DNA from: Marsupella aquatica
Lineage: Eukaryota > Plantae > Marchantiophyta
Assembly (NCBI GenBank): GCA_973895155.1
Contig: OZ316893.1
Span: 17,366,770-17,430,769 of the forward strand
Length of the DNA stretch: 64,000 nucleotides
Reading direction: 5' to 3'
A model generated the notes under the pieces. That model was not told the DNA's origin and did not search any database. It saw nothing but the letters and a program-made list of their open reading frames with translations. This document shows, one piece after another, positions 1-37,499 of the stretch. The translations under genes were made by a program, and so were the position numbers. The number at the start of each line of letters is the position of its first letter. Positions within the stretch are counted from its first letter, which is position 1.

Positions 1-1110
1 CATACAAAGAACCAGACAGTGCTCTGTTCACTAACAAGTACTACTAAGTACTACAATAACAAGTAAAGGTCTGGCCCAAGTATGAGTCTCCAGTGCTCTT
101 AATTTTCAGTAAGAAGTACTATCAGTAACAAGTAAATGTCTGGCCCTATTAGTAACATTGCTCTCCTCAGTAAGAAGTAATATCAAGTAAGATCAGTAAC
201 AAGTAAAGATCTGGCCCAAGTAATACCAGAGCTATCTTCAGTAACAAGTATGTTAAGTACTATATATCAGCAACAAGTAAAGGTCTAGCCCAAGTAATAC
301 CAGCGCTATCTTCAGTAACAAGTACTGTTAAGTACTATATATCAGCAACAAGTAAAGGTCTAGCCCAAGTAATACCAGCGCTGTCTTTACTAATAGTACT
401 ATTAAGTACTATCACTAACAAGTAAAGGTCCAGCCCAAGTAATACCAGCGCTATGTTTACTAATAGTACTATTAAGTACTATCGGTAACAAGTAAAGGTC
501 TGGCCCAAGTAATACCAGCGCTATGTTTACTAATAGTACTATTAAGTACTATCAGTAACTAGTAAAGGTCTGGCCCAAAGTTAATACCAGCGATAGGTTT
601 ACTAATTATAGTACTATTAAGTACTATTAGTAACAAGTAACTTAGGTCTGGCCCAAGTAATACCAGCGCTATCTTTACTAATAGTACTATTAATTAAGTA
701 CTATCAGTAACAAGTAAAGGTCTGGCCCAAGTAATACCAGCTGCGCTATCTTTACTAATACTACTATTAAGTCCTATCAGTAACAGGTAAAGGTCTGGCC
801 CAAGTAATATTTACCAACACTATCTTCAGTAACAAGTACTGCTATGTACTATCAATAACAAGTAACTGGAGGTCTGGCCCAAGTAATACCAACGCTCTCA
901 TCAGTAACAAGTACTGTAAAGTACTATCAGTAACAAATCAATGTCTGGCCCAAGTAGTACTAGTTCTTGTCAGTGACAAGTAGTCTAAGTAGTATTAAGT
1001 ACTATCAGTACTAAGTAGGTACTATTAAGTATTATAAAAAATACCAATATTGCGTAATATATATTAAGTACGTACTACCAGTAACAAGTAAATGACCGAG
1101 TAAGTAATAC
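1..1110. repeat. Tandem minisatellite, ~70-bp unit, ~14 diverged copies, containing the palindrome TAATAGTACTATTA
   Basis: Unit at 421-490 AGTAAAGGTCCAGCCCAAGTAATACCAGCGCTATGTTTACTAATAGTACTATTAAGTACTATCGGTAACA; AACAAGTAAAGGTC recurs every ~70-75 bp; no unique spacers. Confidence 0.95.
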
Positions 1111-1614
1111 AAGTCTAAACCAGTTTTATTGTACATAGTAGTCTTGGTAACAAAGTAGTCCACATGAAAAATAGTCTATATAGCATGTAGCAACATTACG
1201 TGCATTCAAACTAAGACCGGTGTGTACTCAAAACTATAAACCAAACTACCAAGTAGAGAAAGTATCCCTTAGCCAAAACTCCTGGTAGATGTTATCTTGC
1301 AACTTAGTGGCTTCCTGCACAGACAAACAAACAGTCAGCAAAATTTCATGGATTCTCGATGAGAACCCTTATCAATATACCGCAACCTGGAGAACTGAAA
1401 CCTGAAATCTGAAACCTGGAAAACTAAACACTTACATGCAACACCAAATAAATGATCTGAGAAATACACCTGCGTGAAGGCAGTCTGTCTGTAAACGTAC
1501 TTGCTGGCTTCCATATCCCGTAATCCAAAACTTGTAAAATATCTAACTCAGCCTGTATTTAGGCATCTTTGCCAACTACACCAGGAACCACATTAATAGA
1601 GTCTCAAACTTGTA

Positions 1615-4168
1615 TCAAGTTAAATCAAGTTTCTTCTTAGACTCTTTCGCGTTTGGCCTTCCTTTCCCTTTTGCACTACATATAGGTGGCGATACCACAT
1701 CAGACAAATTCATCACTACTAGCCTGCCGTTCATACTAGCAGGGCTATCGTCCACAGTTGCTCTCTCTGCTAATGAAAGGGAGTCATGACGAGTGACAAC
1801 TTTCCTTTGGGGGTCCCCAGTAATCAGATCTTGACTCTTCCTCTTTCTGCCTGGGGCTTTCTTCTCGGGAGTTCCCTCCTTTGATTGGCTATCCACCGAT
1901 GCCACCACACTCCCGTGCTCCACCTTCACTACAAGTTTTGACTGCCCTGAACTTCCAATAGACTGTTTCCTTCGCCCAGGTCGTTTTGTCAGTGGACTTC
2001 CCTCTCCACGTGGTAGATCTAGAGAATCTAGATCTATTACATATTTTGTTGTGGAAGACAATTGAATCAACTGTGCCTTTCGCTTGATGTCTTCAAATGC
2101 AACTTGACTATCCCCCTCCTCCTACAAACACCACATAGAAAACCACCCGGTCACAACAATAGCAATGGTGATGACAACCAAGACATACCTTGATGCTATA
2201 CATGTGCCACACTAGCAAGCCAAGACATACAAAGTAAAAGCATACCACACTAGCTAAATTACCTTGGAATATTTTATAGTCAAAGCCTTCTGCCGGTCTC
2301 TCTCCTTATCTTGCCTGGCCTTCAGCTTTTCACCCCCTCTCTGTACAATTCCCGCAATTGTTTCTCAAAAGACTTTGTCTGACCTCCCAACCCCAACGTT
2401 ACCTCCAATGCAATCAATTTTGGAGATGAATGCGCCAAGCCCCAACTTTGCAACCAATGAGGGTGAAAAATTTCATCACAAGCTACACATCGTGGAGTTT
2501 CACAGTCAGATTTTGACACTAAAGGCACAAGACACGCTGGATGGTAACAATGCCCACATGAGGTGGGAATAAAATTTTGGCAGTGAAATCCCAGGAAACA
2601 CACGGCACATGGAGACATCTTGAACAGATGTTGTCGTAATTGCAGAGCCGTTGGAATGAATTGAGGTTTCAAGGAATGAAACTCCCCCTGAAAATGGTCT
2701 GTAAGTGATTTCTTCTCAGCCTCGCAACATTCCAAACTCTGATCATCGCCCTGTTGCCTAGTTGTCAGATCCTTGAGTCTTTGCAGACCTTTCTCCTTCT
2801 GTGTACTTGCCCAACTTGCCGAAACTCCCAACGCCTCAACTTCTACGTTAGCATCAGCGAAGCTTGTTTGCAGCATTTGAACCTGTGCCAAAATTAATCG
2901 TCATAGTTTAGAACAAATCATGGTAATATTCACAGGTAACCTTGATGGCAATGTGGGAGTAAAGACTTCTAAATATGATATCATTCCGGCAAAAATCAGG
3001 ACATCTCCTCAACTATGATTTACATCCATTGAAATACGGTCTACTACCAGAATGTAAGGAATGGTACCTCAGACTCAATTTTGACCAGTTCTTTTGTGAG
3101 ATCATTGTCCTGTTGCTCTAATTCCTGCACCTGCTCCTGAGCATGATGGTCCTACACATCCCCAAAATCATGTTGTTAGTATCTGCTGTAATTACAGCAA
3201 GAACAGATTCTAACAGTTGTGAAAGAAATTCATAATGCAACACTCTTATCTACCTGTTCATCCATGGCTGCTTTGCAGTCGTCAAGCTCCATTGCAACGG
3301 CCTCCTTCTTGTCCAAAACAATTTGCAGCTCTCTTTCCCTCGCATCTAAATTGGCCTGTTGAGTAGGAATATGAGCTTCAACCTGCTCAATATTCTTTTG
3401 ATTTTCTTCCACCAACTGTGCATGCTTCTCAACCACCTGGGTGACCTCTTTAATACTTTCCAAAAATTTCAGACAATGAACTTTCAGGGATTCAATGTCA
3501 CTATCCAAGCAATCCAACATGACACAAACAAAAGTTCCTGGCTGAAGTTCATACTTCTCAGTAGTTTCTGTAGGGACCTTGGCGGTACATACAGATGAGA
3601 AAATAGTACTTCTCAGGGATGCGATAGATGTGGTTGCTGGAGCAGATGGGGGCTCCTCTGTTGTCATTGCAGGAGCAATCTTCTTGTCCTCCTGCCCAGC
3701 TGTAGCTTCAACGCGTTCCAGACTACATTGACTCGGCTGCTTGTAAACACTATCTGGCCTTACAATCGGCGGACCAAATGGTCTTGGTTTCTTGTCCGTG
3801 AAGGCTTTGTGAATCTGATTCTTATGCTTGATATCAGCAAAAGAAGCCCAATTCACAGGTTTCCGGAGAACAAAATGAGCATACAGACCCTTTATTAAAG
3901 TCTTGCCCAACATCCCATTCAAAGGGCTACTTTCGTGCCCATCCAAAACCTGCATCAAATGCACTATTTCCTCATGCGGAATGCCTGTGCAAGTACTCAA
4001 GTGAGCGCCGTTATGGGATAACGCTCCAAAACACTTCTGGTGGATTGCATGATTGAGGACTACCATTTTTCTCCTTTTTTCTCCACAAAAAGGACTCGAG
4101 TCCTTGCCATTTTGCATTAAATGTGAAACATATCCCTCAATGGCCAAGATTGAGGATACGTATATCAA
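1615..4168 (-). pseudogene. Multi-exon gene: plant-mobile-like N-terminal domain + coiled coil + RING-H2 finger + basic tail (paralog A)
   Basis: ORF 3230-4168 (FGALSHNG..C..LIKGLYA..PVNW, then coiled coil); small exon ~3070-3150 bounded by AG/GT; ORF 2322-2891 with CAVC..CGHCYHPAC..CVAC..WLQSWG (C3H2C3); last exon ~1615-2121; apparent frameshift in G-run near 2335. Confidence 0.8.
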
Positions 4169-5249
4169 AGGCTAGATTTGAACTGGTGAACTGATTCCAT
4201 TAAATGAACTTTTTTGGATTTAGTAGGACCCTAGTAAAGCTTGCACTCGTATCCTCATATAGAGTACTTATGATGTGTTTAATGTCCTCAAGGCGAGTAG
4301 CCATCGTTTACTTTTCAAAAAAAGGACTCGAAAGTCTTGGAAACCTACAATAAATGTCCTCGCAATCCCCGCCGGCCAGGACATTTTGAAAACAAGGACT
4401 CCAAGTCCTTCCAACTTTGGCGCGATAGTCTCAACAGTAGTAAGGACTCGAGGACAAAGGAGTATTATTGAGAGTTTTATGCTTGAGCTATCAAATTTTG
4501 CAAAGTGTTTCATGGTGGACACCAAGCAGCTTGAGGTCCATAGCCAAAATCAGTAGTGTTCGAGTGTTGGGGCAGGAAGAGAGAGCGACAAGAATTGCAA
4601 ACGAGTAGGTATTTTGTTGCGCATTGCAAGATTGTCCATGTCGGCCCGGCCCATTCAAACCATTGAGATAATTACAGCCCGAGAGCTCTCGTCACAGCAG
4701 AGTTTATTGGCAACAAAGGGAAGCTAGTGGAGGACGACCAACTTACTTTTGGAAGCGATTTCATTGTTTTTTTCAAATCTGAGCACTTTGACGGGTTGCT
4801 GACATAGGTTTGGTTTGCACATGATGATCAAACTCTCAAAAATGATGGCTAGCATTCTTTCGATTCCTTAGCTGACTTTTTGATAGACCGTCGTATGTAC
4901 CCCTATCTGTTCGCATGCTATTAACATGGGATTATCCGTCAGCTGCATTGGTTGGAGTAATGCAACCTTCTAATTCCATTGTGTAATGCATGTAGGCCGA
5001 GCGGGCGGTTTGTTTGAAGCCAGCGGAGGAAATTTTACCCGAGTCATTGGTGATTGAATCCAACCAACTTCCATTTTCAATCCGCAGCAGTCCTGAGGTA
5101 ATAATGTAGGTGTTGGCCCGATACGCTTGCTTATACTTTGAGTTTTCACCACAACTTTCCTCTGTACTAGCGTATTTTTGAATGTCGTCATGGATGCCTC
5201 AACTGATAATCCATAAGCTCCTAGAACTTCTACTCTTGAGCTAGGAGAA

Positions 5250-7678
5250 ATGGAGATAGGTACAATCCCAGACCCTGTTCTCCCTCGTAGCAGTAGAGTC
5301 CCGTCCACTAGCAAACCAACCACGTATGCCTCCCAAGCTACAGATTGTGCTTCTCCTGACTCTCCAGCTCTTGTAGAGAGTATCAAAACTGCAAAACCAA
5401 AGACTAAGGTGGAGCCGCCTCTAGAGCCATGGGATCCTAAAGATTATGTGAAGGACACAGAGTATTTCCATGTCACATTTGGTCTTCCAAATGAAGGTGT
5501 TAATCCTCATAAGATCAAAGACATTTCCAAGGAGCAATTGGCCGAAGTGTTTGGAGAGAAAGACAGGAATGGGTATAAGTTGAGTCTCTGTGTGGGCCTG
5601 CCAATTGAGGAGGTTTTGCAGCTATCCCAAGTCGTGGATGGTTATGATGCACCAGTGAATGGATTCTTGTCTTTCACTTTCATCAAAGGGGCATATGCAA
5701 AAAGGATCCAAAGGCGAAAGGTGGACTGGTGTGTGTATGCGGTGTCGAAGCTGAAGGGGCAAATTGCCCAATGGGAGCGAGATGGCAAGGGTAAGCCAGA
5801 TGGGCCTCCTTGCATTAGGAGGTTGCGTCTGTATTCACCACCAGTGCCTCAGGAATTTAGTGAAGATACTCAGAATCAAAAAGATTTGTATCAAGCATCA
5901 AGCGCCAGGGGACAAAGCTCATCCGGGGACAACCGATTCAGGAGCGGATTTTGGTAGCAAGGGAAGCGCACACGAGAGCGCACATCCCAAACCATTGGAG
6001 GCTGCCCTTTCTGCCCCTGCAACAACGCTTCTCCCTACCAAGCCTATTTCTCCTGTTGTCCCTATAGTGCCAAGAAGTCTTTTGCTTGCTATTCTGGATG
6101 GGCAAATAGTCACGATCAAATGCAGTCTTAGAGACACCCATGAGAGCATCAGTAAGGTTCAGAAGACTGTGCAAGACTTGGAGGCAGCAAACGAGGATCA
6201 TCCAAGACTCAGCTCTGGTCTGGTGGACCAACTTCAGAAACTACAGCAAGAATTGCAAGATGTGAGAATCAAAGTGAAGGCCGCAGACACCTTGTATGAT
6301 GACATGTCAACGGAAATAGAGCTTGAGGAGCTCAAGGGAGAGCAAGATGAGGAGGTACAATGTCAGACCATATATATACCTGTCCCTGTGTCCATCAAAC
6401 TATCTGTAGGCTGGATATATATGTTTAGTTGAGATGTTGGATTCAATTTAGCAGGACGAGGCATTGATGCATTGACGATGAGCTGCAAATAACGTTGTCG
6501 TGTGCATATTTTTTGGGGGTGGGCAGGAAAGCTATGTTGTTATCCTGCAACAGAAGTTGGAGGAGGGTAACAAGGCCATGGAGGCTTTGAAGGAATCTGA
6601 GTCATTTATCCTAAAGGGGATGGCTACATTTGAGAAGCTCATTGAGACCAGGAAGAAGCGCTTTGAACAGTTACCACACAAGGTGGCTCATTTGAAAGTT
6701 GTGGAATCACAGTTGGAAGGACATGTGAAGCGTTTGGAGTTGGCTGCAGCAGCTCAAAAGGCCGAATTGTCCATTTTGAAGCCTGTGTTGTCCAATCCAT
6801 GTCCAACCTTGCAGCCTCGATTTGTTCCCACATCAACTGCGATAGTGGGAACTGAAGTGTTCATGAGTAATTGTCCAGTTTGTTGCCACGGGTATCATTG
6901 TTTCAATTGGGTTCCAGCAAGTTGTGGCCACGCCTATCATCCGCATTGTTTATTTACCTTGTTGGGGGATAAAACAAGGACAAGTTGTTGCTTTGCTTGT
7001 GGGGAACCCTTTTGTGAAGATTGGATTCGAAGTTGGGGTCTTCCAAAGAGAGCGGTAGACAAGCTGCCGTTAGGTGAAGGCTCCTATATTCAGGATTTGA
7101 AGGCAACATATGGGGCTAACAGTGCCCAATTGGGCACACGTCGTCACCTTTTGCAACAGATGCAGTCCACGCAAGCAGTGGTATGTGTATAACCAGACTA
7201 GGCCTGCAGGTCATGTTTAGGTAGTTGGACAGTTTGAGTTTTTAGTTGGGCCATTAAGTGAATGTCGTCATTGTGTGTGCAGGAACAAGCCAAGGTCCAA
7301 ACAACTGTGTTGTTGAACAATGTGGACCACACTAGTGTGGTGCATGAACAGGGTGCGCCTGTGGATGAGTCTCCTGAATTGCTAGTGTTCAATTCCACAG
7401 CAGCCATCGGAGTGCATGTGAGGAAGAAACAGAAGCAAGAGAGTGAAGTAGCTAGCAAGGTGACCAGTACCCCATTGACATCTCTTGAGCTTGGCACCTT
7501 GCCCTTCACTCCTGAGTCTCTCTCTCATGTTTCATTCACGCAACTGTTGAGCCTTGTTCAAACTGAAGCAGGAGAAACATCTCCTCCACAGTCCAGGAGT
7601 GCAATCCAATCCCAAGTTGTTCCTCCCAAGTCATCAAACTCCAGGAAAAGATTGCAACCTCTTGTGAGAGACCCGTAG
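5250..7678 (+). pseudogene. Multi-exon gene: plant-mobile-like domain + coiled coil + RING-H2 finger (paralog B, divergent from paralog A)
   Basis: ORFs 5250-5957 (FGLPNEG..FGEKDRNGY..C..FIKGAYA..KVDW), 5764-6432 (frameshift ~5900), 6500-7192 with CPVC..CGHAYHPHC..CFAC..WIRSWG, and 7262-7678; GT..AG introns ~6355-6526 and ~7181-7282. Confidence 0.82.
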
Positions 7679-7889
7679 CAAAAGGAAGAAGGTTTTTCTC
7701 TGGGTGCTGTAAACTGAATAATATAGAAAATCGTCTTATGTGCAGCAAACTAAATCAGGGCGGAAAACAAGAGCCACTACTGTGAACTAGTTGTAGAGAT
7801 CAAGCAGGTAACTATGGGTTTCCTACCTTGTGATGTTCTTTTGTCCTTTATTTGTTTGCCTTTGGTTGTCATTATGGTTTGTCACACTA

Positions 7890-8235
7890 GCAGGACTCGG
7901 ACAATAAGGGCCAAGGAGTTCAAGTCCTTCTTAAGGACTTTCAGTTCTCGCTTGAGCACTTGAAGTCCTTATTGGAGTCGTGGGGCAAGGACTTGGAGTC
8001 CTTCGGCCATGACTAGGACTTGGAGTCCTTGGGCAGAGTCCTTGGGAAAGGACTAGTAGTCATTGGGCAAGGACCCGGAGTCCTCCCGAGTCCTTGGGCA
8101 AGGACAGGAGTCCTTGGGCAAGGACTCTTAGTCCGTCGACAAGAACACTGAGTCCTAAGTGGCTAAGTCCTTCGGTAAGGACTCTAAGGATTTACCAAGG
8201 ACTTGGAGTGAGGAAGGACTTGAAGTCCTTGGGAA
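7890..8235. repeat. Degenerate AAGGACT-N-AGTCCTT palindromic repeat cluster (same motif also at ~4090-4460, 12765-14070 and ~16830-16980)
   Basis: Many AAGGACT / AGTCCTT inverted pairs, e.g. CAAGGACTTGGAGTCCTT, AAGGACCCGGAGTCCT. Confidence 0.85.
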
Positions 8236-8344
8236 ATCCTTGCAAAAGTCTGTGGAGTGAGAAAGTGCAAGAGTCTTTGGTTAGTTTGTTTGATTCAAAT
8301 TGTTGAATTCTTGATTTTGAGAATGAGGTGCTTCAGTTTTGCAG

Positions 8345-8926
8345 ATGGAGAAGCTTAGCCTATATGATACTCTCCATGAGGTCAGGATTGATCAGATATG
8401 GGGTCTATGTGCTGGAGCCTTTACTTATGAAGGCTGTGGGGGAGTTTTGAGTGACGGCCGTCCCTGCACCTTGGGAAAGCACAAACGGAGGTTGAGAATG
8501 CAGAATCCCGAGTCACCTTTAGGTCCTCGATCACGCAACAAACTCCAGCACTCTTGTTCTAGGGATGGGGAAGGAACATATATGTACTGTTTTGCTGTGC
8601 AGGTTGGCGATGTGGTGCTTCAAGTGAATGAAGCTAATGGTCTGCAGTTGATGGGGATCTCGGGCCAGGACTATAGGGATTCTGATGATGAGAGGAGAGA
8701 TGAGATCAGGGATCAGGTTTTGGCAAGGACTTGGATCATCAGGTATGTCAAGGGTGACAAGGGAGGAGATCTGCCTCGAGCATTGTACTTTGAAGAAATC
8801 AAAGTCGAGGCTCCAGCAGACGAGTTGTCTGTGGCCGAAGTTGGCCTTAGCAAGCTTAAGAATATTGTTGCTGACCTAGGGTCAGACATACTGGAGACAT
8901 TCAGGTCTTTTAGCATCAAAAAGTAG
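8345..8926 (+). CDS. Stand-alone RPA70 C-terminal OB-fold/Zn-ribbon-like protein (Rep_fac-A_C-like)
   Basis: FTYEGCGGVLSDGRPC...HSC...YMYCFAVQVGD...EANGLQLMGISGQD...DDERRDEIRDQVL resembles the RPA70 DBD-C pattern (YxAC..C..C..C..Y.L.v.i.D..E.G..imG.sa.e); open frame; splice acceptor TTTTGCAG immediately before the ATG. Confidence 0.6.
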   Translation: MEKLSLYDTLHEVRIDQIWGLCAGAFTYEGCGGVLSDGRPCTLGKHKRRLRMQNPESPLGPRSRNKLQHSCSRDGEGTYMYCFAVQVGDVVLQVNEANGLQLMGISGQDYRDSDDERRDEIRDQVLARTWIIRYVKGDKGGDLPRALYFEEIKVEAPADELSVAEVGLSKLKNIVADLGSDILETFRSFSIKK

Positions 8927-11900
8927 GCAGTCAAACTATACAAGAGGAAGGGTTTCGGATGGCTGGGTTAAATCATCTGGTTTTGGATGATACTTTGTTA
9001 GGGATTGAGGCCTTGGGAGCCTCTTTTTCATTGTAAGACTTTTTCTTACCAACTATGTATTCATCTCAGAATTTGGTGCCTGGTTACAATTTACAGAGTT
9101 TGAAGAAAATCGCACATGTTATTCATGCCCACATTCATGTCTATTTTAATTGAGTGGTTTGGTCACGAAAGCTCCATACATTTCGTCTTTTGTTTCCACT
9201 AGGATCCTGTCTACGTGTGGGTGCTGCAAATTCCTTGCGGGATAATGTCTGGCTTCAACATGGGACACTTCTCCAGACCCGCTTTACTTTGAACTACTGG
9301 CAAAGTGCATTATTATGGTTTATGTGATTTTTTTCTATTGTTCTTAAATAGTCATGGCAAGCAACAGAACCATGCGGGTGTCCCCAACGTGATCAAAATT
9401 ATTGCCCCGCCGGTGAAATATTGAATATGTAATATTGAGTACATGCGAAAATGATAATTTAACTCTCTCAATTGAGAGACAAAGTGCCTCAAACCCAATA
9501 AAACTCCCACAGGGATAGATATTCAATATTGTCCTAGTAAAGCCCCTTCAGGGTCGGACAAGTAGAATGGGAAACCATGGAAAGAACCTGAAGATATCAA
9601 GTATTTAGGCGACAAGGAATCTGTTCATGGATATGGATGGATTTAGCATTTGTGCTACGTAAGCACTTTTCTGCAATTTTATTGAGGCACTTTAGCTACT
9701 CATAAAAAGTCTTAAAAATTGTTAGCATAGAGATTGTAGATAGTAGAAGCCACGGCTTAAGATTCACCACTTTTGGAGTTTATGATTAGAAGTGAAAAAT
9801 AGTCAAAGATGATAGATTTGTATGTTTTGTCAAAAAAGTATAATGACACTTAGTCATTCCGACACTTTTGAGGGACACTACCATTACAGCAGTACTTACA
9901 CAATGTTACTGGTTCTGCCTGACGGGTTGTGACCAACCATTGTTGATGCTAAAATGAAATGAAGGTGAAAAATAAGTCAATGCGCGCCTTACATTAAATC
10001 GATCTCTGAACAATTTTACAGTTCCATAAAAACCAGCCTTGCCTACGAGACAGAATTCTTGGAAATCTTCATGTAAGACAAAACTAGACTCACCTACAAG
10101 ACTGAAACTTTGGATATCCTCATCACACACATCTAGAACCTACAGAACCTGCACCTGCAGCGAGTCTTACAGAACCTACACCTGCAGCGAGTCATAAATG
10201 GCTTCTATAGTGTCTGAGCCTAGTGTGTAAAATCTAGCACCTCGTCCCTTGCCTCCCTTGGGCACGTCACATGGTGTCAAACCAAATTGAATGTGAATGA
10301 CTTCCCCTAGGTGGCAGTAGCTGAAAGGAGAAGCAGAATTGAAGACAAACTTGTTTTCTGATCCTGGATATGGTTGGAACCACCTCCCCTTTAAGGCCAT
10401 GTCCCCTGCCTTGAATTGTACCTGGTACCCATCAGCAAAACTCTTTGTGACTGTGTGGAGCACCTCTTCACACTGATAAATGTAGAAATCTACATTATCT
10501 TGACTCGGTTGACAAGCACGACATGCATAGAAGTCTCCCAATTGGACACATTCTGGCAGAGAGATGTTGTCAAGCAGTCCTTCACCCTCTCCCATGTTCT
10601 GTACATTAGGTCTGACATCTGCCTGTAATACCCCTTTGACCATCTCTAGGCGATACTTGCCTACCCATTCCTTGTTCTCACAATTCATTGGATCATCATC
10701 AACACAAGCTACACAAAAACAACTGAGCTCTCGAACTTGCAACAATGTTGACAAACTCTTACTAAATGCATCAAAGCAGTGCAAAGATCTACAATCCTTG
10801 ATTGGATCACAATCCCACTTCTTCCTTCTGTTTACAGTGCCAACTGGAATTTCCCAAAAAACACGTCGAACGAGTTGCACATCACCATACTCTTGCAATT
10901 GACCAACGGCAAACTTGTCTTTGCAAAACTTCACCACATCTGATGCACCCTCTAGACGATGACCATTGATGCCTTTCAGTTGCTCAGTTGCAAGCCCGGT
11001 CTTGATGTGACCTCCGAGAGCATCCTATTACAGCATACCAGAAACACAAATTAGAAGTCTCTTAGGTGTGCAAGTCTGGACATCCAACTCCATTAGAAAC
11101 TTACTACACTTCAGTTGAAAGGCGAGTATTCACAGAATTGGTTGCAAAGTGTGTTCAAAAGATACTCACAGCAACACCCTTCCCATGGCCAGAGGCATGG
11201 AAGAACCATTTCATCCGTGCACCAAACCTCGAGTAGTACCTACTGACGTAATAAAATGGTCTGTAGGCCTTGAACTGAGAGGCAGCCCCATCAGACCAAA
11301 CCCAATGTTGATCAACATGAATGCCCTGATCATCCATCCACTCCCAATGTGCATCCATGCAATGTTGCACAAAAAGAGTGTCATGACAGTTATCGTCACT
11401 AATGTAGAAATGGTAATCGGCTATAATATCACGAGTCCTATCAGCATTTTGTGCTGCTTGCACAGGCCTACCCACTGCAGCTTCAAATGAATCGGCATCT
11501 TCCCTATGTCTATAGGTAACATGGATTAACAATGTCACTTGCTTATTGTCCCAATGTTGACTCTGAATCTCATTTTGAGGCAAAAAGTGTAATTTTCTGA
11601 AAAATCTATTGAAGAAACAATTGTCCCTCTTGGAAATGTTTTGAGACATTGTCTAAATTGTTGCAACTGCCAATGTGCTCGAAAGTTATGCACAATAAAT
11701 GTTTTCATGGTATCCAACACCGCCCTCTTAAAATCTACCATGGGAGTTTTCTTATAAACCATCCTCAATTGCCTAGCCTTCTTTGTTGCGCTCTCTTTAG
11801 ACCCTTTCTTTTTCTCTCTCTTTTGTTGGGCAGTGTCATCCAGGTCATGATATTCAAACGACTGCCAATCAATCATTTGTTTCTGTGCAGGGTCCAACTC

Positions 11901-12409
11901 CTGAGTGCACCAATCCAACTTCTCTACTCCACATTTGTCACATTCACCTATAATACAGGCTTTTTGGTGCCACTCGTTCTCAGGCAATCTAGGACAGAGA
12001 GCTTCCTCTATCCAGCCACGAACTGAGGTTATGGACTTTGTAGATGCCATACAAGAAGAAATGGGTACAACACCTAAGGGTCTACAGATATCACATTCAC
12101 AAGGACAGTCCTTATTGTGCTGGTGCCACCTAAATTTGTTAATTGCCTCTTTCAGTAAGTCCATCTCCACATGTTGTTTGCAGCAACAAACATTTCGGTC
12201 CTTCATCTTGCAAACATAATATGGCTTGAAGTATATGAATGATCACATCCCTACAGACACCCCATTCTGCTCCCTTGTGCACCAGTCACGAAATGCTGAA
12301 TAGAATTGATATTGTAAACATACAGGAGAGTTTTATTAGAAATACTATAGCAAATAGACACCCTCAAATGTGCAGCCATAAAAATCCCTAGATATCTGGG
12401 TACTACTTA

Positions 12410-12747
12410 TCAATCTATTCATTAAAAGTGAATTATTATTCAATTTATGAACATTTGGGCAATAAAAAATGTACATTTGGCTTTCAAAAAGTGTACAATT
12501 AGGCAAGAAACAGAGTTGATGGCCATCAGATATATCACCATGTTCATCCTTTGTAAATGAACTAGGATGAGACTCCTAGTCAAGATCATTTTTGTCACCT
12601 CAAGTTTACAATTGATCATTTAGGTGTAGAGTATTATACCATAGTGTACCTTTTGGGTTTAAAAAGTGTACATTTAGAGATCAAAAAGTGAACATTTAGA
12701 GGCCTAAAAGTGAACAAAATAAAATACATTTTTAATGAATAGGGTGA
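12410..12747. mobile_element. 338-bp MITE-like insertion in the transposase intron
   Basis: Terminal inverted repeats TCAATCTATTCATTAAAAGTG / CATTTTTAATGAATAGGGTGA; flanking direct repeat TACTTA at 12404-12409 and 12748-12753 (alternatively 4-bp ACTT); internal AAAGTGTACATTT repeats. Confidence 0.75.
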
Positions 12748-12764
12748 TACTTACTTTTAGACTG

Positions 12765-14070
12765 AAGTCCTTCAGCAAGGGTTGGAATCCTCATTGGAAG
12801 ACTACCAGCAAAGCTTAAGGACTAAAGTCCATCAGGGAGGAGTACTACAATCATTTGGTCAAAGCGCTTCACTTGTTGACAAAGGACTAGTCTATAGACG
12901 TAACACAACCCAGGACTATAGTCCTTTACAAAGGATTAAAGTCCTTATCGAAGGACTACATAGTCCTCGGATGAGGACTAAAGACAGTCCTCGACAAAGG
13001 AGTAAAGTACTTCAATAAGGACTACAATCCTTGAATAAAGACTATAGTCCTTAGTTTACAAAGGAGTCAAGTCCTTAAGTAAGTACTATATAGTCCTTTA
13101 CAAAGGAGTAAACACTTGAGTAAGGACTATAGTCCTTTACAAAGGACTACACTTCTTGAAAGAATAAGGACTATAGTCCTTTACGAAAGCCCGTACCAAG
13201 GAGTAAAGTCCAAGGACTATTAGTAGTCCTGTTAAAAGGAGTAAAGTCCTTGAGAAAGGACTATAGTCCTTTACAAAGGAGTAAAGTCCTTGGGGAAGGA
13301 CTACAGTCCTTTACAAAGTAGTAAAGTCCTTTAGTATAAGGACTATTAATAGTCCTTCACAAAGGAGTAAAGTCCTTGAGAAAGGACTATAGTCCTTTAC
13401 AAAGTAGTAAAGTCCTTGGGGAAGGACTATAGTCCTTTACAAAGTAGTAAAGTCCTTTAGTAAGGACTATTAATAGTCCTTCACAAAGGAGTAAAGTCCT
13501 TGAGAAAGGACTATAGTTCTTTACAAAGTAGTAAAGTCCTTCAGAAAGTCCTTTACAAAGTAGTAAAGTCCTTGAGTAAGGACTATTAATAGTCCTTCAC
13601 AAAGGAGTGAAGTCCTTTACAAAGTAGTAAAGTCCTTCAGAAAGTCCTTTACAAAGCAGTAAAGTCCTTGAGTAAGGACTATTAATAGTCCTTCACAAAG
13701 GAGTGAAGTCCTTTACAAAGTAGTAAAGTCCTTTACAAAGTAGTAAAGTCCTTTGATAAGGACTATATAGTCCTGGGCAAAGGAGTACAGTCCTTTGTCT
13801 AAGGGCTATAGTCCTTGACGCTTAGTGAAGCCCTTGGCTAAGGAGTATAGTTTTTATCCAAGGAGTAAAGTCCTTTGACTAAGGACTTCACTGCTATCCA
13901 TACTACTGAGTCAAGGACTATATAGTCCTTAGTGATTAACTAGATAGTACTTTGCCAAGGACTCAACTCGTTTCTCATGCCAGACTTCACTTGACAAGGA
14001 TTCAACAGTGCTTCTTGAAGGCCTAGATAGTCAGTCCTGAAGGAATTTTCCTGGAACAAAGTCCTTCCTG
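12765..14070. repeat. Intronic palindromic minisatellite, ~20-bp basic unit (AAGGACTATAGTCCTTTACA / AAGGAGTAAAGTCCTTGAGA)
   Basis: Dozens of copies, including the perfect 16-bp palindrome AAGGACTATAGTCCTT; lies inside the ~1.9-kb intron 12312-14254. Confidence 0.95.
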
Positions 14071-15749
14071 CTAGGCTATATAGGACGTCAGGTCTCACAA
14101 AATCATTCAGATCCTACCTTAAAGAAAAAACTAGGCGGTTATAGCAGAGCACAATGGCTAAAGCACACATGAAGGAAAACTACTTCTCAACATCTGCAGA
14201 TCGTATTATGAGTTAAAATCAAAAGTGGCAAATCAATCATGGAGAATTTCTCACCTGTGTATCCTCCAGCCAGTGCACTTGATGTGTTTCATACATTTTC
14301 TGCCCTAGTCGCAATCTGGCTTCATTGTTCTTACATGGAGAAATCCGAGTGTGGGTTTCCCAAAAGTGTTCCACCTGTTTTCGAACTTCATCAGAAATCT
14401 TATCTCAACATACCTTTCTTTCCCCCATAGGATAAGCTTTTTCACGATCTTCATCAATCTGCATCCTGATCTTAGATGCCCTATGAAGATTTTGTCGTTG
14501 TATACCCAAAGCTTGAGCTAGAGAGGTCTGTTGCCTTCTATCTACACATGTCTTTCCTACAAGTGCTGACAAAACTTGGTACTTTGCAGCAAGATGGTCT
14601 TTGCGCTTCCCTTGCTTCACTATGCTCAAGGTTTTCCTCACATCACATAATGCAGCAGCTACAGCCCAATCCATTTTAGGCGAACCTAGTCTTGTAGGCT
14701 GGTACTTCTTCAAGTATTTGTGCAACTAGATACCAGATAGTACTGCCCTCCTTGCACCTACATTGAATGTAGCGGTCTTCTCCAAAATGTACCTAACTAT
14801 ATCTGATAACACAATTGTAATGCACCTTCTCTTTCGGTTGGGAGTTACACCGTCTTCTGGAACATAGCGCTTGCTCCTTTGGTACTCAAATCTCTTCCTG
14901 TCTGCATCCTTCCTCCTCTTCTCAAGAATGGAATCTTCCTGCAATTGGTCATCACAACCACAATTATCGTGCTCACCTTCATTTAGTGGATGAAGGTGGG
15001 CTGCATGCACTTGAGTGCAAGCAGTTTGGGTGCTCTGCCTTGGCATTCGAATGTGGGCGTTGACCTGTGTTGGAATGCTTGCCCTTAGGGTCCTCCGCCT
15101 AGACTCTAAAATCTCAAAATGGCATGAATGCGCAGCCTCCTTGAGATTTTCACTTTCTTCCCGGGCTGTACGCAACATCACAGTGGCAGCTTCATGAGCC
15201 TCACTAGTAATTCTCATTGCCTCTGATTGCCCAGCAGCCAATAACTCTCTTTGCCTTCGGTTGCCATCAATCACTAAATCTTGACATTGCTGCTTAGCAC
15301 TCTCCATCATGAGATTGCACTGTTGTTGTGTTTCATGAATCATTTCATCAGTGGGAACTGCCTGTTGACCACCTATGTGCTGACCGTTTGCTATTTGCTC
15401 TTGTCTTTTCAACTTGGATTTGCGATTTGCCAACCTTCGCTTCTCCAACCTCTCTCTTGCTAGGGCATCGGATACCTGATTAAGAGTAGCCATTTCAGCC
15501 TAATCATGGAGCATCAAATACGTCGGGGTGTTCAACTTCCTTTACCAATCAAAGGCCGCCCACCCTCATAGAATCAAATTCACCTACGTCCTAGGGATCC
15601 AATTTCAATTCATGACTTAGAACATACCTCACAAAATCATCACATTTAATCTCTAGACTTGCTACCCTTCCTGATCGAGTCCAATGCAACTTCTCCTCTT
15701 GAAAAAGAAAAGCCCTGAGAAAAGCCTTTCAAACTGGGAACTCCCTAAA

Positions 15750-16770
15750 TTGTGTCGATCATCAAATACTCTGTCTAGCTAGTGTCCTTGCTTCTCCAGT
15801 CCAAAGAAACTTCTCCTCTTCAAAACAAAAGCAAATCAATTTAATTTAATGTACCTCAATTCTGTTCACGATAGCTGCCAATACTGATTTGATTGACTGC
15901 TTGACCTTCCTCTCCATGCTCTTTCTTGAAGTTCCTATTCGGATTCAAATTAATGTACGTCGGCAGCAAAGCTTCAGACCCTAATAAATGTGCAACTTCA
16001 TCGAACCTCCTTTTTGCACTCATTCCCCATGCTCTGAAGGCAACACGGATTTATCAAAGCATGGATCTCACATCACACCACGGATCTTGCTCTTTCAATC
16101 AATTTAACCCAATCATAGAACTTTCCAGAGTTGCTACCTATTTTGCGTTCCACAAGGCTAGGTATTTTAAAGGCCACTGTTGGTCATTCCAGAATTTAAC
16201 GCAACTTGAACTCTTGTTAACAAACAAAGCCTTTCAAAATTTAAGCTACTCTGATTTTGTCAATCATCACATACTCTGTCCAACGTCCTTGCTTCTTCAG
16301 TGCAAAGAAAAATCTCCTCTTTGAAAACAAAAGCATTGAGGCATATATTTACCTCAATTGTGCCGATGATGGCTGCTAGTGAGTGATTTGAGTCAATGTT
16401 CAACCCTTTGATCCTCTTCAGACCTCCTTCGCACTCTTTCCCGAAGTTCCCGTCATCATCAGCAATGCTTCAGACCCTAATAAAACTTGCAGCTTCATTG
16501 CCCTCCTTTTTGCGCTCATTCCCCTTGCTCATGCTCGGATTTGAATGTCATCCGCGAAGCTTCAGACGCAAATTAAATCTGCAGCTTGATTGGCTGTTTG
16601 GCAGAGCGCGCTTGAACAGGTAAACCTTACCCTCCTTTTTGCATGAGCTCATTCCCCATGCTTTGAAGGCAACACAAATTAGAACATCTTGAATCTCACA
16701 TCATTGCACGACTGCTCTTGAATGAATTCTCACAGAGGCATCCATCTTGTGCTTCACGAGGCTAAGTATG
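15750..16770. repeat. Diverged ~500-bp tandem duplication upstream of the transposase
   Basis: ATACTCTGTC..GTCCTTGCTTC..CTCCTCTT..AAAACAAAAGC..TACCTCAATT..CTTCAGACCCTAATAAA..CTCATTCCCC occurs at ~15760-16030 and again at ~16270-16525. Confidence 0.75.
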
Positions 16771-17118
16771 GACCCTTGCGCTCAGCTTTGATACTTTCTA
16801 AACAAATTGTAGCTCGCGCCTAAGTGAGAAGGACTCTCACTCCTAGATTTTGAAAATTCCTGCGGAACTAGTAGCGCCAACGACATTCTCCCACATAACT
16901 AGTTGTCCAACTGTAAATTACATGTCGGGACAAAAAATGAGTTTCCACAAAGGACTTTGACTCCTTGTTTTTGAAAAGTCCTCCACGCAGAACTAATAGC
17001 GCCAACACTCTCCTAGAGAACCGGTTGTCCTTCACTCATAAATTATAGTTGCGACAAGAAAGGGGTTACCTCGGGAGCTGAAATACTAATGAATGCGTCT
17101 TATACGCATTTGATTTGT

Positions 17119-17560
17119 TTAAGTCCTTTTTGACTTTAGATGTGCTAATCTTGGCCGTTGACAGTCCTTTGGATTAGTGAAAGGACTGGGGACTTTTTGC
17201 CTCCTTTGGTAGTCCTCAATCTTGCAATGCACCTTCTGTAACATAGCCTTGGAGACGAGAGAATCTGGAATTGCACCAGGTTTCAATCCGTGGTCAGGAA
17301 GACAACATACTTTGGTCCAATAATCTTTAGGTTTCCTGAAGTCTTCCTCCCGCCAAGGAATCCAGTCGTCATTGGAAGGATCAGCAATGGCCTTTCCTTT
17401 CTGGAGTGGTACAAGCTTTGCAGATTTCTCGCTCTCTGTCTTCATAGAGCTAGTGCTGCTTTGCGATCACTTCTATGACCGGTCTGCCTTGCCGCCATTG
17501 TTGCTCACCTTAACTTGAGCCTCCCCTGCCTCTACTGCCTCTACTACCTCTAGTTCCTGC
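17119..17560 (-). pseudogene. Third, truncated paralog of the RING-gene N-terminal domain
   Basis: PWREEDFRKPKDYWTKVCCLPDHGLKPGAIPDSLVSKAML aligns with PWDPKDYVKDTEYFHVTFGLPNEGVNPHKIKDISKEQL of ORF 5250-5957; in-frame stops upstream of 17445. Confidence 0.65.
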
Positions 17561-17639
17561 CCTTTGATTGCCATTGCTCCCACCTCCCCACCTCCAATGC
17601 CACCAACCTCAACGTTTGAGCAAGCAATGAAAAAATGAG

Positions 17640-17955
17640 CCGAAAGCAAGCCTCAAACTTCCGCTGCCTTGAACGTCCGTAGCTCTTGAACGTCTGCAGC
17701 CCCGCAGCCTCAAACATCCATAGCCCCGCAACCTTGAACTTCCATAGCCTCGCAGCCTTGAACGTCCGCAGCTCTTGAACGTCTGCAGCCCCGCAGCCTC
17801 AAATGTCCACAGCCCCGCAACCTCGAACTTCCATAGCCTCGCAGCCTCAAATTTCTGCAGCCCCGCAACCTCAAACTTCCGCCGCTTGCAGCCTCAAACT
17901 TCTGTAGCGCCGCGGCCTCAAACTTCCGCAACCTCTTCGTAGCCTCAAACTTCAT
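17640..17955. repeat. GCAGCCTCAAACTTCC-type minisatellite (~21-24-bp units)
   Basis: Repeated CCGCAGCCTCAAAC(T/A)TCC / CCTTGAACGTCCGCAG units; explains the repetitive ORF 17710-17955. Confidence 0.9.
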
Positions 17956-18248
17956 AGAGGCTTCGACTAAATTGTCTCATGTCAAGCATTTCCTTCACAA
18001 ATTCAGGCCTCGAGCATTTCCTTCACATTGCACTCTGTTCAAAAGTCGTGCATTCGGTTCTCCCACATTTTTGCAATAGCCCTTACCTCCTACCTCATAC
18101 ATCACCGTTAGATCATCTCATCTCATCTAACGGTTGCAACGTGATTTCGTATTCAAAGTACAAGTTTCAAGAGGCCCCACATTGGAACCAATGGATCAAA
18201 AAAATCAATGGTTGTTTGTATTTTTTTGAATATCATTTTAATTACTTA

Positions 18249-19415
18249 TGAGGGTTGGTAAACAGAGTTTATTAGTTGGAGACAAAGGGCACTCATAAAC
18301 ATTTACTTATTGATACTTCTAGTCTACTACTTAAGGTACCAAAAGCTGCACCCTTTGGACCTCCTCTAGCTTGCAAAGGGCCAGGGCTAAGCTTGAGAAG
18401 GAAGAGGTGGTCCATGCTTAGTGTGGAGAATGTGTAGTGAACTTTTGTTGTAAAGGTGATACAATAAAAGGAGACTTGTCAATCTTCATTGTGACCATTA
18501 AGTGTGAGTGCATTTGAAGTGTATGAGAGCAAGAGAAGAGTTCATGCTATGGTGTAATCTTGGTCTAAGCTCAAAGGGGATGTGCTATTACAAAACCAAG
18601 GCCAAGGAGACAAGGTTAAGGTAGAGCACTACTTTGAGACTTAGAAAGGATTATAGCTTGAGGGTGGAAAGTACTTTGTTTGGTGTGTGGTGTTAATAAG
18701 AAGTAAGAACAAGAGGAAGAGTCCTTAGATAGAGGAGCCTTCTCTAGAGCTCAAAGGGGATGTGTGGACCCAAAACCAATGCCAGGGGGGGCAAGGTTGA
18801 GGAGTAACACTACTTTGAGGGTCTTGAGGAGACTTAAGCTTGAAGAGGAAAGTACTTTGGGTTCTTGGGTGTTTGGGTGAGAATCTACTCTAAGGTGACA
18901 GCTTGGAGTGGAGATCCCCTTGCTGATCCTTGGAGTAGAGGAGAGGGGAAGGGTGTGAGTGCAAAAGTAGTCAAGGGGACTACCTCTCTAGAAGTAGAGA
19001 GTTGGAACTACTATGCATGGAGTGATTAGACATTTTAAGCACATTTCAGAAGTTTTGTCAATCCTTTGTGACCCTGGTATGACATGGAGCAGGTAGTAGG
19101 TAGTTTTTAGGAGAAAAGTCCCTTAAGCTCCTTGACAAGTGTTTGACATAGAGTCCCACCCTTGTTTTTGGCGCCGCTGCCGGGGACAACTCCTTGCAAT
19201 TTTTGTTGTGGGAGTGGAGCCACAAGACTTGGAGGTGTGTTTGCAGGTTGGTTGTTCAAGAGGAGGGAGATAAGAAGGTGATTGTGAGTGGCATGCCCAC
19301 TACAAGGAGTCAAGCACTGAGAGAAGCCTCTCTTAGTTTTAACTTTGGGGACCAGTTGGAGCAACCAGATTGGGTGGACATTCATTTGCAAGCTGAAGCG
19401 GAACCTCTGTCTCCA
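18249..19415 (+). mobile_element. Truncated Ty3/gypsy Athila-like element: 5' LTR (~18249-19164), tRNA-Asp PBS, start of gag
   Basis: PBS TGGCGCCGCTGCCGGGGA at 19169-19186; LTR begins TGAGGGT and ends ACCCTTG (degenerate inverse); ~180-bp internal duplication in the LTR (18565/18745); gag-like start MPTTRSQ near 19293; breaks off at ~19415. Confidence 0.75.
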
Positions 19416-19553: not shown

Positions 19554-20467
19554 TTAAATCTCACCTAGATCATTTGGACCAATAACAAGAAGAATAGCCA
19601 GCAAAGCATGACCTTCTGGCAAACTTCTAAGACTGCAATTAATATTGTCAATTGTCATGACTAAAGGCCAACCCTGAGTTCTCTTGTTGTGAGACAAGGC
19701 AGTCTGATCAGAATATAAAATGATGGGTGAAATCACTCCTCCTTTGCAAGTAAATTCAACGTCTTGCTCCATTTCCCTCCACCACTCAGCGGATTGCAAA
19801 GTAGTGTACAATCTCTCACTGCCCTCTATAGCAACTGAAGAGTGAAGTGCAAACTCTTCTTTATTTTTAGGAGAAGAAAATAGATCTTCCAAAACATGTA
19901 ATGGATCATGATGCAACAAATGAACTGGAGCACTTTCAGTCTCCTCGCGGACTTCAACCTTTTCCCAATTTTGGTCACCCGGGCACTTGTTAAACTTTCC
20001 TCATATTTACAAACCTCAGCAGCAGTATGAACCTGAACTTTTTTGGTATCGAATTGAGGGTGGTGCAGCAGCCAAAATAATCTGTTCATATCTTTGTGAG
20101 ATAATCCTCCTCCGTTGTGGCATTGTCTCATAAAGGAGACAAGTTGAAAAGTAACATCAAATTTTTCATTACATTGGGCAGGAGATGTGAATTCATTCTC
20201 AAACAGGTCCATGAATTCCTCAGAGGACTGCTCTCCAACTGTCTCAACATTGGCCTGTATAGATCCCGGTATAGATGTATTCCCAATGTTTACACTCGTA
20301 CCCAACCCCTCGTGCTCTGCCTCCATCACATGATCAGTCTGTCCAGCCCTTTGCACATCTCTCTGTTTTGCTAAGCAGAGTCCATTTTGTCCTTGGTGGG
20401 TCCGCAAAGCTGTATAATCCAGAAATCCCAAAGCTCCACAAAAATTACACTTAAAGTTTGAAGCCAT
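19554..20467 (-). mobile_element. Plavaka-type (CACTA-related) transposase, N-terminal part, frameshifted and truncated
   Basis: N-terminal Zn finger CNFC..H..C; core ERLYTTLQSAEWW..GGVISPIILYSDQT..GWPLVMTIDNI..R..HALLAIL matches the Plavaka pattern; frameshift ~19980; splice donor at ~19563. Confidence 0.8.
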
Positions 20468-21799
20468 AAAAAATCATATTGTCCCTACACAGTACAAATT
20501 CAATACAATGTATTGATACCACTACTCTGCACATTGTTACTTATTGTTGATTACATTCATTTGAAGCTCATAAAATATTCATGGCTCTCTTTCACCAGGA
20601 CTTCACGCTGAATCGATAGCCTTGACATATACCTGGCCTGAATATAGGTTCAAGCTTGGTTCTAGCATAGTCCACATGTCACTCCAAGTCACCCCTGAAT
20701 GTCTCAACTGTGACAAAATTAGCCAGAATTAGCCATTACATAACGCTCACAATTTGACGTTGAGGCTCTGTGGTGCAAATTCAAAGGAGAGAAGCTAACT
20801 GGCAAGGGATGACGCTTAGGGACTGACGGAGGCCATGATCAGACATATTATGAGTGAAGAGTATGGTTAAGTGCAGGAACAGGTCATAGATACTTACTGT
20901 AGGAGTATGAGGAGAAAGGAGGAGTGAACACTTGAGATACAATTGCTCAGAGGAGGAGGAAAGGAAGGACAAGAAATGGCAATGCTGAAGTGCCGGTTGA
21001 GGGATTTGATTGTTCTTGGACTATGGACTCCTTTAATAATCCTCCCCTACTTCCTTGTAATGCATACTATGATGCTTAGCCAGGAATCACTAGGCCGTTT
21101 AAATGGTAAAACCAGGAGGGTATCTTGAAAACACATTAGTATAGTAACAAAAACAAGGAAAATATAAACAATTAAGGGTGACTATGGAACCCGAGCCGAG
21201 GCCGGAAGTAAGGACGCCATGGCAGGGAACACGATTAGGGTTAGGGCAAGCTAAGTGCCGGCGGCTATGGGTAACCAATGGGCAGATCGACCGAGTGGGG
21301 GGGGGGTAAGGCAAGCCAAACCAGGAAGGACGGCTCACATTTGCACCTCGAGCAAGCAAAGTGCAAGCAGAAGCCAACAACTGTCAGCTACAGAGGAGAA
21401 CACGGGAGGGACATAAGCAGCTATCGAGCACGGCCAAAGAAGGGAATGAGCAACATCAATCAAGCAGCACATTTTTGGGGATGCCTATTCAAACGGGCAA
21501 GTGGGTACATTGTGACTTACGAAGAAGAAGAATCAAAAAGAGCAGCCCGCGAGCGACAAGAACTTGCTCAACTATGGGAACTGTAGAAGACGGCCTTTTT
21601 AGGAGGAGAACTCATCAAGGCTGAATTCCTGTGGACACCTATTGGCGACGAGCTTGACAACCTTCTAATTCAAGACAACCGAATCGTCGGCATCCGACAA
21701 GCCATCCACAACTGCTACGATGAACATTGGGGCCTGAAGGGTTGCACAACGGCGTGGACAAAAGCAACAGTATTGGGAGAATCTTCAGGTGCCGCTGAA

Positions 21800-24669: not shown

Positions 24670-25528
24670 CACTAGTAGAAACCGGGGGGTATTTAGACCC
24701 CATTAAACGACTATTCAGTACCGTATAGGACTTGGAAACGATTGGGAAGGACTCCAGTCCTTTATAGGACTGCGAGTCGTATGTTTTGTTACTATAATCA
24801 ATTGAGTCCTTTATAGAACTGGTTTGTAAGTCGTTTAATAGACTGGATTTTCAGTCTATTGTAGTCTTTGTGTGGGTAGCTTTGGTGAGTCGTTTTCAGT
24901 CTTTTATAGGCTGCGATGGTGAGTCGTTCAGAATGACTAAAAAGGTTATGGAGGGTAGTCTTTAAATATACTTTGTGGGTTTATAAAACGACTAAAGTAA
25001 ACATTTTGTGGGGTATGTATAAGTCTTTCATGTCAACTGGATATGAGTGATGAAGACCCCACTATACTACTTGGAATGAACTCACTCTTGTGCACAAATA
25101 ACACATTTCATTCATGTTTTATTGTGTACTTGGAATGAACTCACTCTATAAGCTCACCATTCATCATGTTAACATTAGAACACATAGAGTTTTAGAAAGC
25201 CATCTTCTATACCATGTACACTAATATGAATTCACAGATTCAAACATCATAGACTACAAAGAAGGTCACAAAGTATTCCTCTATACCATACACACTAATA
25301 CTGAAATGATACAAAACAGATTCAAGTATCATAGACAATCACCATAGAGCCATAGTTTGACATCAATCACTTGTTTCATACATACAGAATTCAGAAATAT
25401 CAATGTCACACAGGCTCCTTCATCCTCTTTACCAAATGGAAAAATTGGTACAGATATTTCTTGGATCTTTCCAAGGCAATGTCAAAATGTGACACAATTC
25501 ACATGATTCTATCTACACTTGCATTCAG

Positions 25529-37304: not shown

Positions 37305-37499
37305 GTAGATTCACAGTCACACCCCACGCAGCAGGAAACAACAATCACTTCAACTGCGACCAACCATGACAAGATGAGTTAGTTCAAGGATCACATTTAT
37401 TACAAAATTGTGATTTATACAAAAATATGAGGGACTCCTACTCCCCACTCTCTCCCACCATTGCTAAGCATACATCTCTGTTGAATCTTGGAGGGCCAG

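Follow-up and report, generated by a model that had tools for sequence, protein, structure and literature searches.

A candidate Sola2-type transposon with RING-type and RPA-like accessory genes in the liverwort Marsupella aquatica

Known relatives and comparable systems

Transposons of the Sola2 superfamily are characterized by a series of DDD motifs, short terminal inverted repeats (TIRs) beginning with G, and a 4-bp target site duplication (TSD) (PMC3627910). The same features were found in an element of the liverwort Marsupella aquatica, located in a stretch of 64,000 nucleotides (the window; contig OZ316893.1 of assembly GCA_973895155.1, positions 17,366,770 to 17,430,769). It differs from Sola2 as described in that it is spliced, resides in a land plant, and has two accessory genes, large intronic motif arrays, and a TSD reading TTCT and not AWWT. 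An earlier reading of the sequence, hereafter the original prediction, had proposed a cargo-bearing, intron-containing Sola2-like unit of more than 18 kb. We found such an element in this land plant, with RING and RPA-like genes lying within its ends, but its length is 13.2 kb, and it has inserted into a gene paralogous to its own RING gene. Its anatomy and Sola2 identity, taken jointly, are very probable.

Sola2-Fanzor1 elements of amoebozoa were published in 2013 (PMC3627910). The amoebozoan elements DFa and PPa share with the Marsupella element a Sola2 transposase accompanied by a second gene, short imperfect TIRs, and a 4-bp TSD, whereas their cargo is Fanzor/TnpB-like, and RING domains, OB folds, and motif arrays were not found in their description (PMC3627910). 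In a 2015 survey, Sola2 appears only among animals (PMC4438587), and nothing further on Sola2 hosts was found in bioRxiv 10.1101/2021.09.26.461848. In plants, Sola1 is present in Physcomitrella, the sizes given for Sola being 2-9 kb with some above 15 kb (PMC9033089, PMC10741241), Sola is listed in a fern genome table (PMC6890710), and a 2026 cypress preprint reports Sola2 as the commonest DNA-transposon superfamily. The view that Sola2 elements are single-gene and mainly of animals and protists is thus partly out of date, given the Fanzor1 cargo of 2013, the cypress Sola2, and a giant Sola1. The latter, Sola1-1_Ec32 of Ectocarpus, resembles the Marsupella element in being giant (21.5 kb) and in having an opposite-strand accessory gene and a proposed binding and modification of its own DNA, but it is a Sola1 of a brown alga with ParB and DNA methyltransferase cargo (PMC12477816). 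Plavaka of Bostrychia with PAG1-3 is another giant DNA transposon in which accessory genes form a conserved cassette and inverted repeats form arrays; it differs in belonging to the EnSpm lineage of a red alga and in its methylase/SET and ParB/oxygenase cargo (bioRxiv 10.1101/2025.02.11.637652).

VANC, TnpA, and the AtMu1 transposase bind family-specific clustered motifs (PMC5735166; bioRxiv 10.64898/2026.08.24.746577). VANDAL elements with VANC in Arabidopsis (PMC5735166) and Spm TnpA/AtMu1 (bioRxiv 10.64898/2026.08.24.746577) share with the present element short family motifs in tandem repeats, within introns and terminal non-coding DNA, and an accessory gene. This is a likeness in manner of working only: they belong to the Mutator and CACTA superfamilies, and it is in those systems that function was tested. 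Few transposon self-recognition systems have been tested, and every one compared here comes from a flowering plant. In the literature searched, no Sola2 of a plant was found to carry RING or RPA-like genes, although Repbase, Dfam, subscription journals, and bioRxiv supplements, such as the cypress repeat library, may hold such an element. Sola2 in a plant, Sola2 with cargo, and a giant Sola1 have each been published; their combination here was not found in the literature searched.

Ends, insertion site, and transposase

Comparison of the window with itself revealed an inverted 27-mer at 4039 and 17233, whose arms are flanked on both sides by TTCT and are continued by patchy inverted similarity for about 400 bp. 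This TIR/TSD pair was unique of its kind within 1-26,000, and 19 of 20 block shuffles yielded none. The termini, which the original prediction had not located, thus lie at 4039 and 17233. The boundaries and the gene in which the element lies are listed below; gene B denotes its RING-type accessory gene.

4039..17233, 13,195 bp: whole Sola2-type element, delimited by the TIR/TSD pair, a putative empty-site contig, and steps in contig depth
4035..4038, plus strand: left copy of the 4-bp TSD, TTCT
4039..4065, plus strand: left TIR of 27 bp, beginning with GGTG and containing an AGGACT core; 25/27 match to the right arm
4066..4500: left subterminal region, with six AAGGACT in 4039-4500 and patchy inverted similarity to the right end over ~400 bp
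16781..17206: right subterminal region, with five AAGGACT in 16781-17233
17207..17233, minus strand: right TIR of 27 bp, from the TIR match and loose contig ends behind 17233/17234 in runs X5 and X6
17234..17237, plus strand: right copy of the TSD, TTCT
17238..17574, minus strand: 5' half of the target gene, outside the element (the third family member of the original prediction)
1615..4034, minus strand: 3' part of the target gene (remaining N-domain, coiled coil, RING-H2), outside the element and a paralog of gene B

When the insert and one TTCT were removed, a 345-codon open frame was obtained with 39% identity to gene B over 158 aa (E 3e-32), and the halves of the split gene aligned back to back in three Riccia proteins (P0084, P0101, and P0119). 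In run X5, a contig of 1,513 nt and depth 5.68 matched 17233-17727 with its letters 357-853 and 3380-4036 with its letters 851-1513; the two matches were taken as one contig because length and depth are equal. We infer that this contig carries the target gene unsplit, that is, the empty site, at about 90-92% identity to the window. Contig records of X2 and X6 likewise begin at 17233, and loose ends with differing flanks behind 17233/17234 in X5 and X6 point to other insertion sites. The TIR/TSD pair, the split gene, and the unsplit contig therefore set the element at 13,195 bp and make the left and right family members one target gene. This gene is a related copy of the element's own RING gene, in which the element is nested, and it probably belongs to an older relative of the element. 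In run X6 (organism C), very high depth was seen at 17147-17300, over the terminal repeat only, with varied loose ends on both sides; this pattern is likely due to a high-copy short non-autonomous family with the same TIR.

The spliced DDD transposase of the original prediction was recovered on the minus strand, from about 15493 to 10176, with introns at 14254-12312 and 11169-11025.

10176..15493, minus strand: Sola2-type DDD transposase gene, three exons, broken
12312..14254, minus strand: intron 1, with a 20/40-bp array holding 59 AAGGACT; the acceptor is AA in this copy and its position follows from homologs
11025..11169, minus strand: intron 2, directly before the third catalytic Asp; homologs P0003-P0005 read GHGKGVADALGG
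about 11606, about 11300, and 11024: catalytic Asp sites SIDFSEN, WSDGAASQFK, and GHGKGVA/DALGG (slash, intron 2)

In this copy the reading frame is interrupted by three in-frame stop codons, near 14726, 14405, and 12243, and is shifted near 11581. The published Sola2 alignment contains the motifs VC.C..H, DF[AS]ENY..Q.E.QS.HW, SD...H, SDGAASQ[YF]K, and W.F.A..HGK..D..GG (PMC3627910 Additional file 10), and every one of them was present in order when compared by eye. A Cys/His-rich region upstream of the core (NVCCCKQHVEM and CIIGECDKC in 11538-12242) fits the Sola2 patterns VC.C..H and C...C..C. The terminal inverted repeats and the 4-bp TSD are Sola2 features as well (4 bp according to PMC3627910). 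Among 46 proteins matching the transposase core, the best named one is from Calypogeia fissa (75% identity), followed by relatives in Klebsormidium, Taxus, Ceratodon, and Adiantum at 39-55% identity. A quick tree of 121 columns grouped the window transposase with the Calypogeia rows (SH-aLRT 96). These relationships point to a leafy liverwort as the host. Pfam was uninformative for the transposase and its homologs, none of 122 pattern matches in viral contigs was confirmed as a relative, and a search of prokaryotic genomes returned no locus. The Sola2 terminus is 5'-GRG. The element instead ends in GGTG with TTCT as TSD, against the published AWWT; amoebozoan Sola2 ends vary after the first G, so GRG may not be strict. 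Diverged internal duplications of 300 and 85 bp were also observed at 15664-16720, upstream of the transposase gene.

Accessory genes, motif arrays, and copies

Two accessory genes lie within the ends, together with motif arrays in probable non-coding sequence; a related array is found outside.

5250..7678, plus strand: gene B, probably spliced, whose product has a helical N-domain without a known fold, a coiled coil, and a RING-H2 finger (about 6870-7000)
7809..8344, plus strand: probable GT-AG intron, as judged from splice signals, with a 21-bp array and 16 AAGGACT, ending just 5' of the OB ATG
8345..8926, plus strand: open reading frame (ORF) of 193 aa with a predicted OB fold like the RPA70 C-terminal domain
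1..1100: tandem array of 70-75-bp units on the downstream side of the target gene; AAGTACT occurs in it 15 times, AAGGACT never

Gene B is convergent with the transposase gene, and its frame is broken near 5877 in this copy. It is paralogous to the target gene (N-domain E 2e-21, RING region E 5e-21; 39-43% identity), and the C3H2C3 ligand pattern of RING-H2 was found in both. The family that the original prediction had placed at 1615-4168, 5250-7678, and 17119-17560 thus has two members and not three: the first two are indeed paralogs, while 17119-17466 matches 5217-5954 weakly (E 1e-5), and 17574-17238 and 4034-1615 are the halves of one split gene. Nor is the family private, with homologs in Riccia sorocarpa and in metagenome loci, and four Riccia homologs carry the name RING-type in UniRef. 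Homologs were first sought with 3233-4171 in a search restricted by length and words, and none was found among 675 candidates; a profile search then yielded 16. Pfam gave no match for the RING on the window ORFs and nothing informative for gene B; a profile of the N-domain was equally uninformative against PDB sequences, and the N-domain model had a pLDDT of 84. Two related genes at 22076-24670 (plus strand) and 33758-36202 (minus strand; 32% identity over 117 aa) combine an FGLP...NG...C domain with a coiled coil and belong to no Pfam family; their weak profile match to the gene B N-domain (hhalign 45%) leaves homology doubtful.

The second accessory gene, proposed as an RPA gene in the original prediction, is supported by its predicted fold. 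The model of the OB ORF (pLDDT 83; Foldseek E 1.3e-4) matched human RPA70 450-616 with a VIA Z of 11.8 and Ustilago maydis RPA70 with a VIA Z of 11.7 (rmsd 3.0, 124 aligned), and an OB fold with a helical insertion, as in RPA70 DBD-C, is predicted. The ORF is only 9-12% identical to RPA chains and stands alone, outside the full RPA1 architecture; its protein would at most work like an RPA domain and is not the host RPA1 gene product. No Pfam match to Rep_fac-A_C was obtained for the ORF or 19 homologs, and its comparison with PDB sequences was uninformative. The named ones among its 59 homologs are all labelled as liverworts, Calypogeia or Riccia, and in six Riccia models the OB ORF is joined to the N-domain, the RING, or both. 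These observations suggest that, in Riccia and Calypogeia, some of the RING-type models now counted as host genes may be cargo of transposons; gene-family sizes would then be overestimated.

The conservation of gene B was analyzed next to related transposases, 229 of which were found in metagenomes, with 80 loci kept and grouped into 52 clusters. A RING profile matched 12 loci, 11 of them convergent with and downstream of the transposase. An N-domain profile built from the loci alone matched five of them, with gene B as the top full-length match outside the loci (E 0.019), and the profile-profile match reached 95.7%. Taken together, a RING or N-domain was found in 11 of the 19 clusters with at least 4 kb downstream, always convergent, and no match lay upstream of the transposase, though 20 clusters had 4 kb there. 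The RING-type gene is therefore an old second gene. Most accessory-bearing loci fall in a clade with the Ceratodon protein and are therefore likely moss elements; the accessory label was not clustered on the transposase tree (276 of 500 shuffles as low). A different RING-bearing ORF, co-oriented and directly downstream of a related transposase in locus L009 (3658-4917, plus strand), was left out of the convergent count. A second cargo type adjoins related transposases in L005 (2767-3972, minus strand) and L019: a convergent ORF whose LVLDLNGLL motif we take to be FCP1/NIF phosphatase-like.

Within 4039-17233 the motif AAGGACT/AGTCCTT was counted 89 times; shuffled sequence gave 1.8 on average and 6 at most. 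All but three copies (86 of 89) are outside coding exons: transposase intron 1 holds 59, the probable intron at 7809-8344 holds 16, and the left and right ends hold 6 and 5, respectively. Clusters were thus present at all four places where the original prediction had seen the motif in spacers, but the two large arrays lie in the transposase intron and the probable intron, and not between genes. The motif was also said to unite more than 18 kb; it is absent from 1-4038 and 17238-18382 and therefore marks only the inner 13.2 kb. The palindrome AAGGAST-NN-AGTCCTT has 18 distinct sites in the window, 17 of them inside the element (0.01 expected). The AAGTACT array at 1-1100 would belong to an older, related family that has a word of its own. 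Of 46 arrays near related transposases (-5 to +8 kb), 18 contained a G[GT]ACT core, where 7.9 would be expected (P about 1e-4); none of the 10 distant or control arrays did, with an expectation of 0.7. The enrichment is suggestive, as the core was picked after some arrays had been seen. One AAGGACT-NN-AGTCCTT palindrome was noted at 24747, near the end of a CACTA element.

Contig depth was compared between the element and its surroundings, leaving out 12,801-16,299. In run X2, the zero-difference pieces at 17504-18432 had depths of 13.9-14.5 (n = 2) and the target-gene pieces 49-56 (n = 3), while the main pieces over the left end, gene B, the OB end, the 3' end of the transposase, and the right end had depths of 145-181; two diverged inner pieces, at 18.7, were exceptions. 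The ratio was similar in X1, with zero-difference pieces at 36.6-38 and several inner pieces at 414-468. Ends, cargo, and transposase are thus of comparable contig depth, roughly 10-13 times single-copy, which suggests about ten near copies with cargo and ends equally represented, although contig depth, as the method itself states, is no copy number, and X1 and X2 may derive from the window's own source. No single piece spans the element. Very high contig depth at 12418-12800, in transposase intron 1, corresponds to a short repeat common to many other loci.

Competing explanations, possible function, and neighboring elements

As a whole, the locus is best explained, with fair though not strong probability, as a decayed 13.2-kb Sola2-type cut-and-paste transposon with both ends intact, two accessory genes, and motif arrays. 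Several observations weigh against it. The TSD TTCT departs from the AWWT preference of amoebozoan Sola2 (PMC3627910), membership in Sola2 was judged from motifs by eye, and the tree holds only relatives found here and no reference Sola2. The empty-site contig is only about 90-92% identical and may be a paralog, and its identity as one contig across both matches was deduced from equal length and depth. A second full-length copy was not seen among public contigs, the longest listed inner piece being 1,151 nt, so it is from tiling and depth that cargo and transposase are taken to be linked in other copies. None of the 80 related loci gave a convincing TIR/TSD, the scan returning low-complexity or LTR-like pairs, and none matched the TIR pattern of the window. 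The OB domain likewise had no convincing match in these loci, and the accessory gene was not seen in 8 of the 19 informative clusters, absences that are unreliable because the contigs are short. The RING profile was iterated on the loci, its weakest matches being 30-residue fragments; 28 of the 46 arrays lack the G[GT]ACT core, itself chosen with some arrays in view; and the N-domain model had no significant structural match in PDB or BFVD (best Z 4.5), which does not show a new fold.

That positions 1-18248 form one giant unit of more than 18 kb with three family members is highly improbable. The target gene and the array at 1-1100 are probably of a related element, a composite could in principle move, and fixed nested insertions have been reported in giant transposons (PMC12477816); against this stand the inner TIR/TSD, the depth steps at both inner ends, the unsplit target gene in X5, and the X2 and X6 records that also begin at 17233. 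Position 18248 is no terminus, since contigs cross it and the next boundary is an LTR-like repeat of high depth that begins at 18383. Alternatively, the RING and OB genes could be passengers taken up from the host, and the arrays could have arisen as a subterminal word expanded neutrally into minisatellites. Other elements of the window also commonly have tandem arrays, the Riccia homologs are annotated as ordinary gene models, and the 8 clusters in which no accessory gene was seen would fit such an origin. We consider it improbable, as the side and convergent orientation of gene B are kept beside transposases only about 40-50% identical, the stand-alone OB ORF, so distant from RPA chains, is unlike a recent capture, and arrays of differing periods share one core and avoid exons.

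Within the preferred explanation, a decayed Sola2-type element, the transposase would excise and reinsert the element through its DDD triad, as judged from its Sola2 family, its ends, and the duplication. The proposals on the arrays are drawn by analogy with VANDAL and Spm/AtMu1. The AAGGACT arrays are probably bound by a protein that the element encodes. The transposase would be the likeliest binder because the core sits inside both TIRs, and its binding of AAGGACT-NN-AGTCCTT has, in our estimate, close to an even chance. Because of their distance from the ends, the 75 copies in introns would serve self-recognition and not cutting; the intronic arrays would keep the element's genes active in silenced chromatin. 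As a ubiquitin ligase, the product of the old, conserved RING gene would assist self-recognition, an anti-silencing role that is suggested only tentatively. The OB protein would bind DNA that is single-stranded at breaks.

The arrays might instead be read by the accessory N-domain/RING protein and not by the transposase, as a VANC-like family-specific anti-silencing system arisen in the Sola2 lineage, which we regard as rather unlikely. As in VANDAL21, the arrays lie in introns and terminal non-coding DNA; the inner element has the word AAGGACT, against AAGTACT beside a 39-43% identical paralog, and in a clade with Ceratodon among its members, gene B is retained next to related transposases. 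Atlas features of a Riccia homolog lean to Myb/SANT/MADF clusters (0.83-0.85), a lead only, and VANC21 (9lnk) was found at rank 49 for the N-domain (122 aligned residues, Z 2.8, rmsd 5.9). This Z is within noise, however, and gene B has no Pfam match to DUF1985, DUF287, PMD, or Myb; no homology of gene B to VANC was detected. Moreover, the motif core is also inside the TIRs, which the transposase must bind, and core-bearing arrays occur at loci with no detected accessory gene, many of them short.

A broader proposal, which we consider unlikely, is an ancient land-plant Sola2 lineage with its own sequence-specific self-protection, independent of VANC and TnpA, in which a new DNA-binding domain fused to a RING ligase, with an RPA-like partner in liverworts, would read family-specific G[GT]ACT palindrome arrays. 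If true, the nested AAGGACT/AAGTACT pair would represent two such specificities side by side. The locus offers a complete, bounded multigene liverwort Sola2, a conserved accessory gene across liverwort and moss-like lineages, and a pair of related families whose motifs differ by one letter, which makes the specificity between protein and motif directly testable.

The window is otherwise a nest of plant transposons that includes Plavaka, CACTA, and copia elements. Upstream of the target gene, the sequence is interrupted by the high-depth LTR-like repeat at 18383-about 19125, behind which lies a tggcgccg motif resembling a primer-binding site. A broken Plavaka transposase (Pfam PF18759, E 8.6e-19) lies at 19554-20473 on the minus strand, and a CACTA element at 24672-about 32600, with a CACTAG end at 24672 and a Transposase_21 match (E 3e-51). 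Clustered BRCT, PHD-like, and F-box-like ORF pieces at 36735-40718 (minus strand) are possibly the cargo of another element. An Ulp1/Peptidase_C48 fragment at 51487-51963 (plus strand; E 1.1e-11) adjoins 42- and 75-bp arrays at 52.4-52.9 kb, and a copia retrotransposon with 133-bp direct repeats that are 98% identical occupies 53566-60292.

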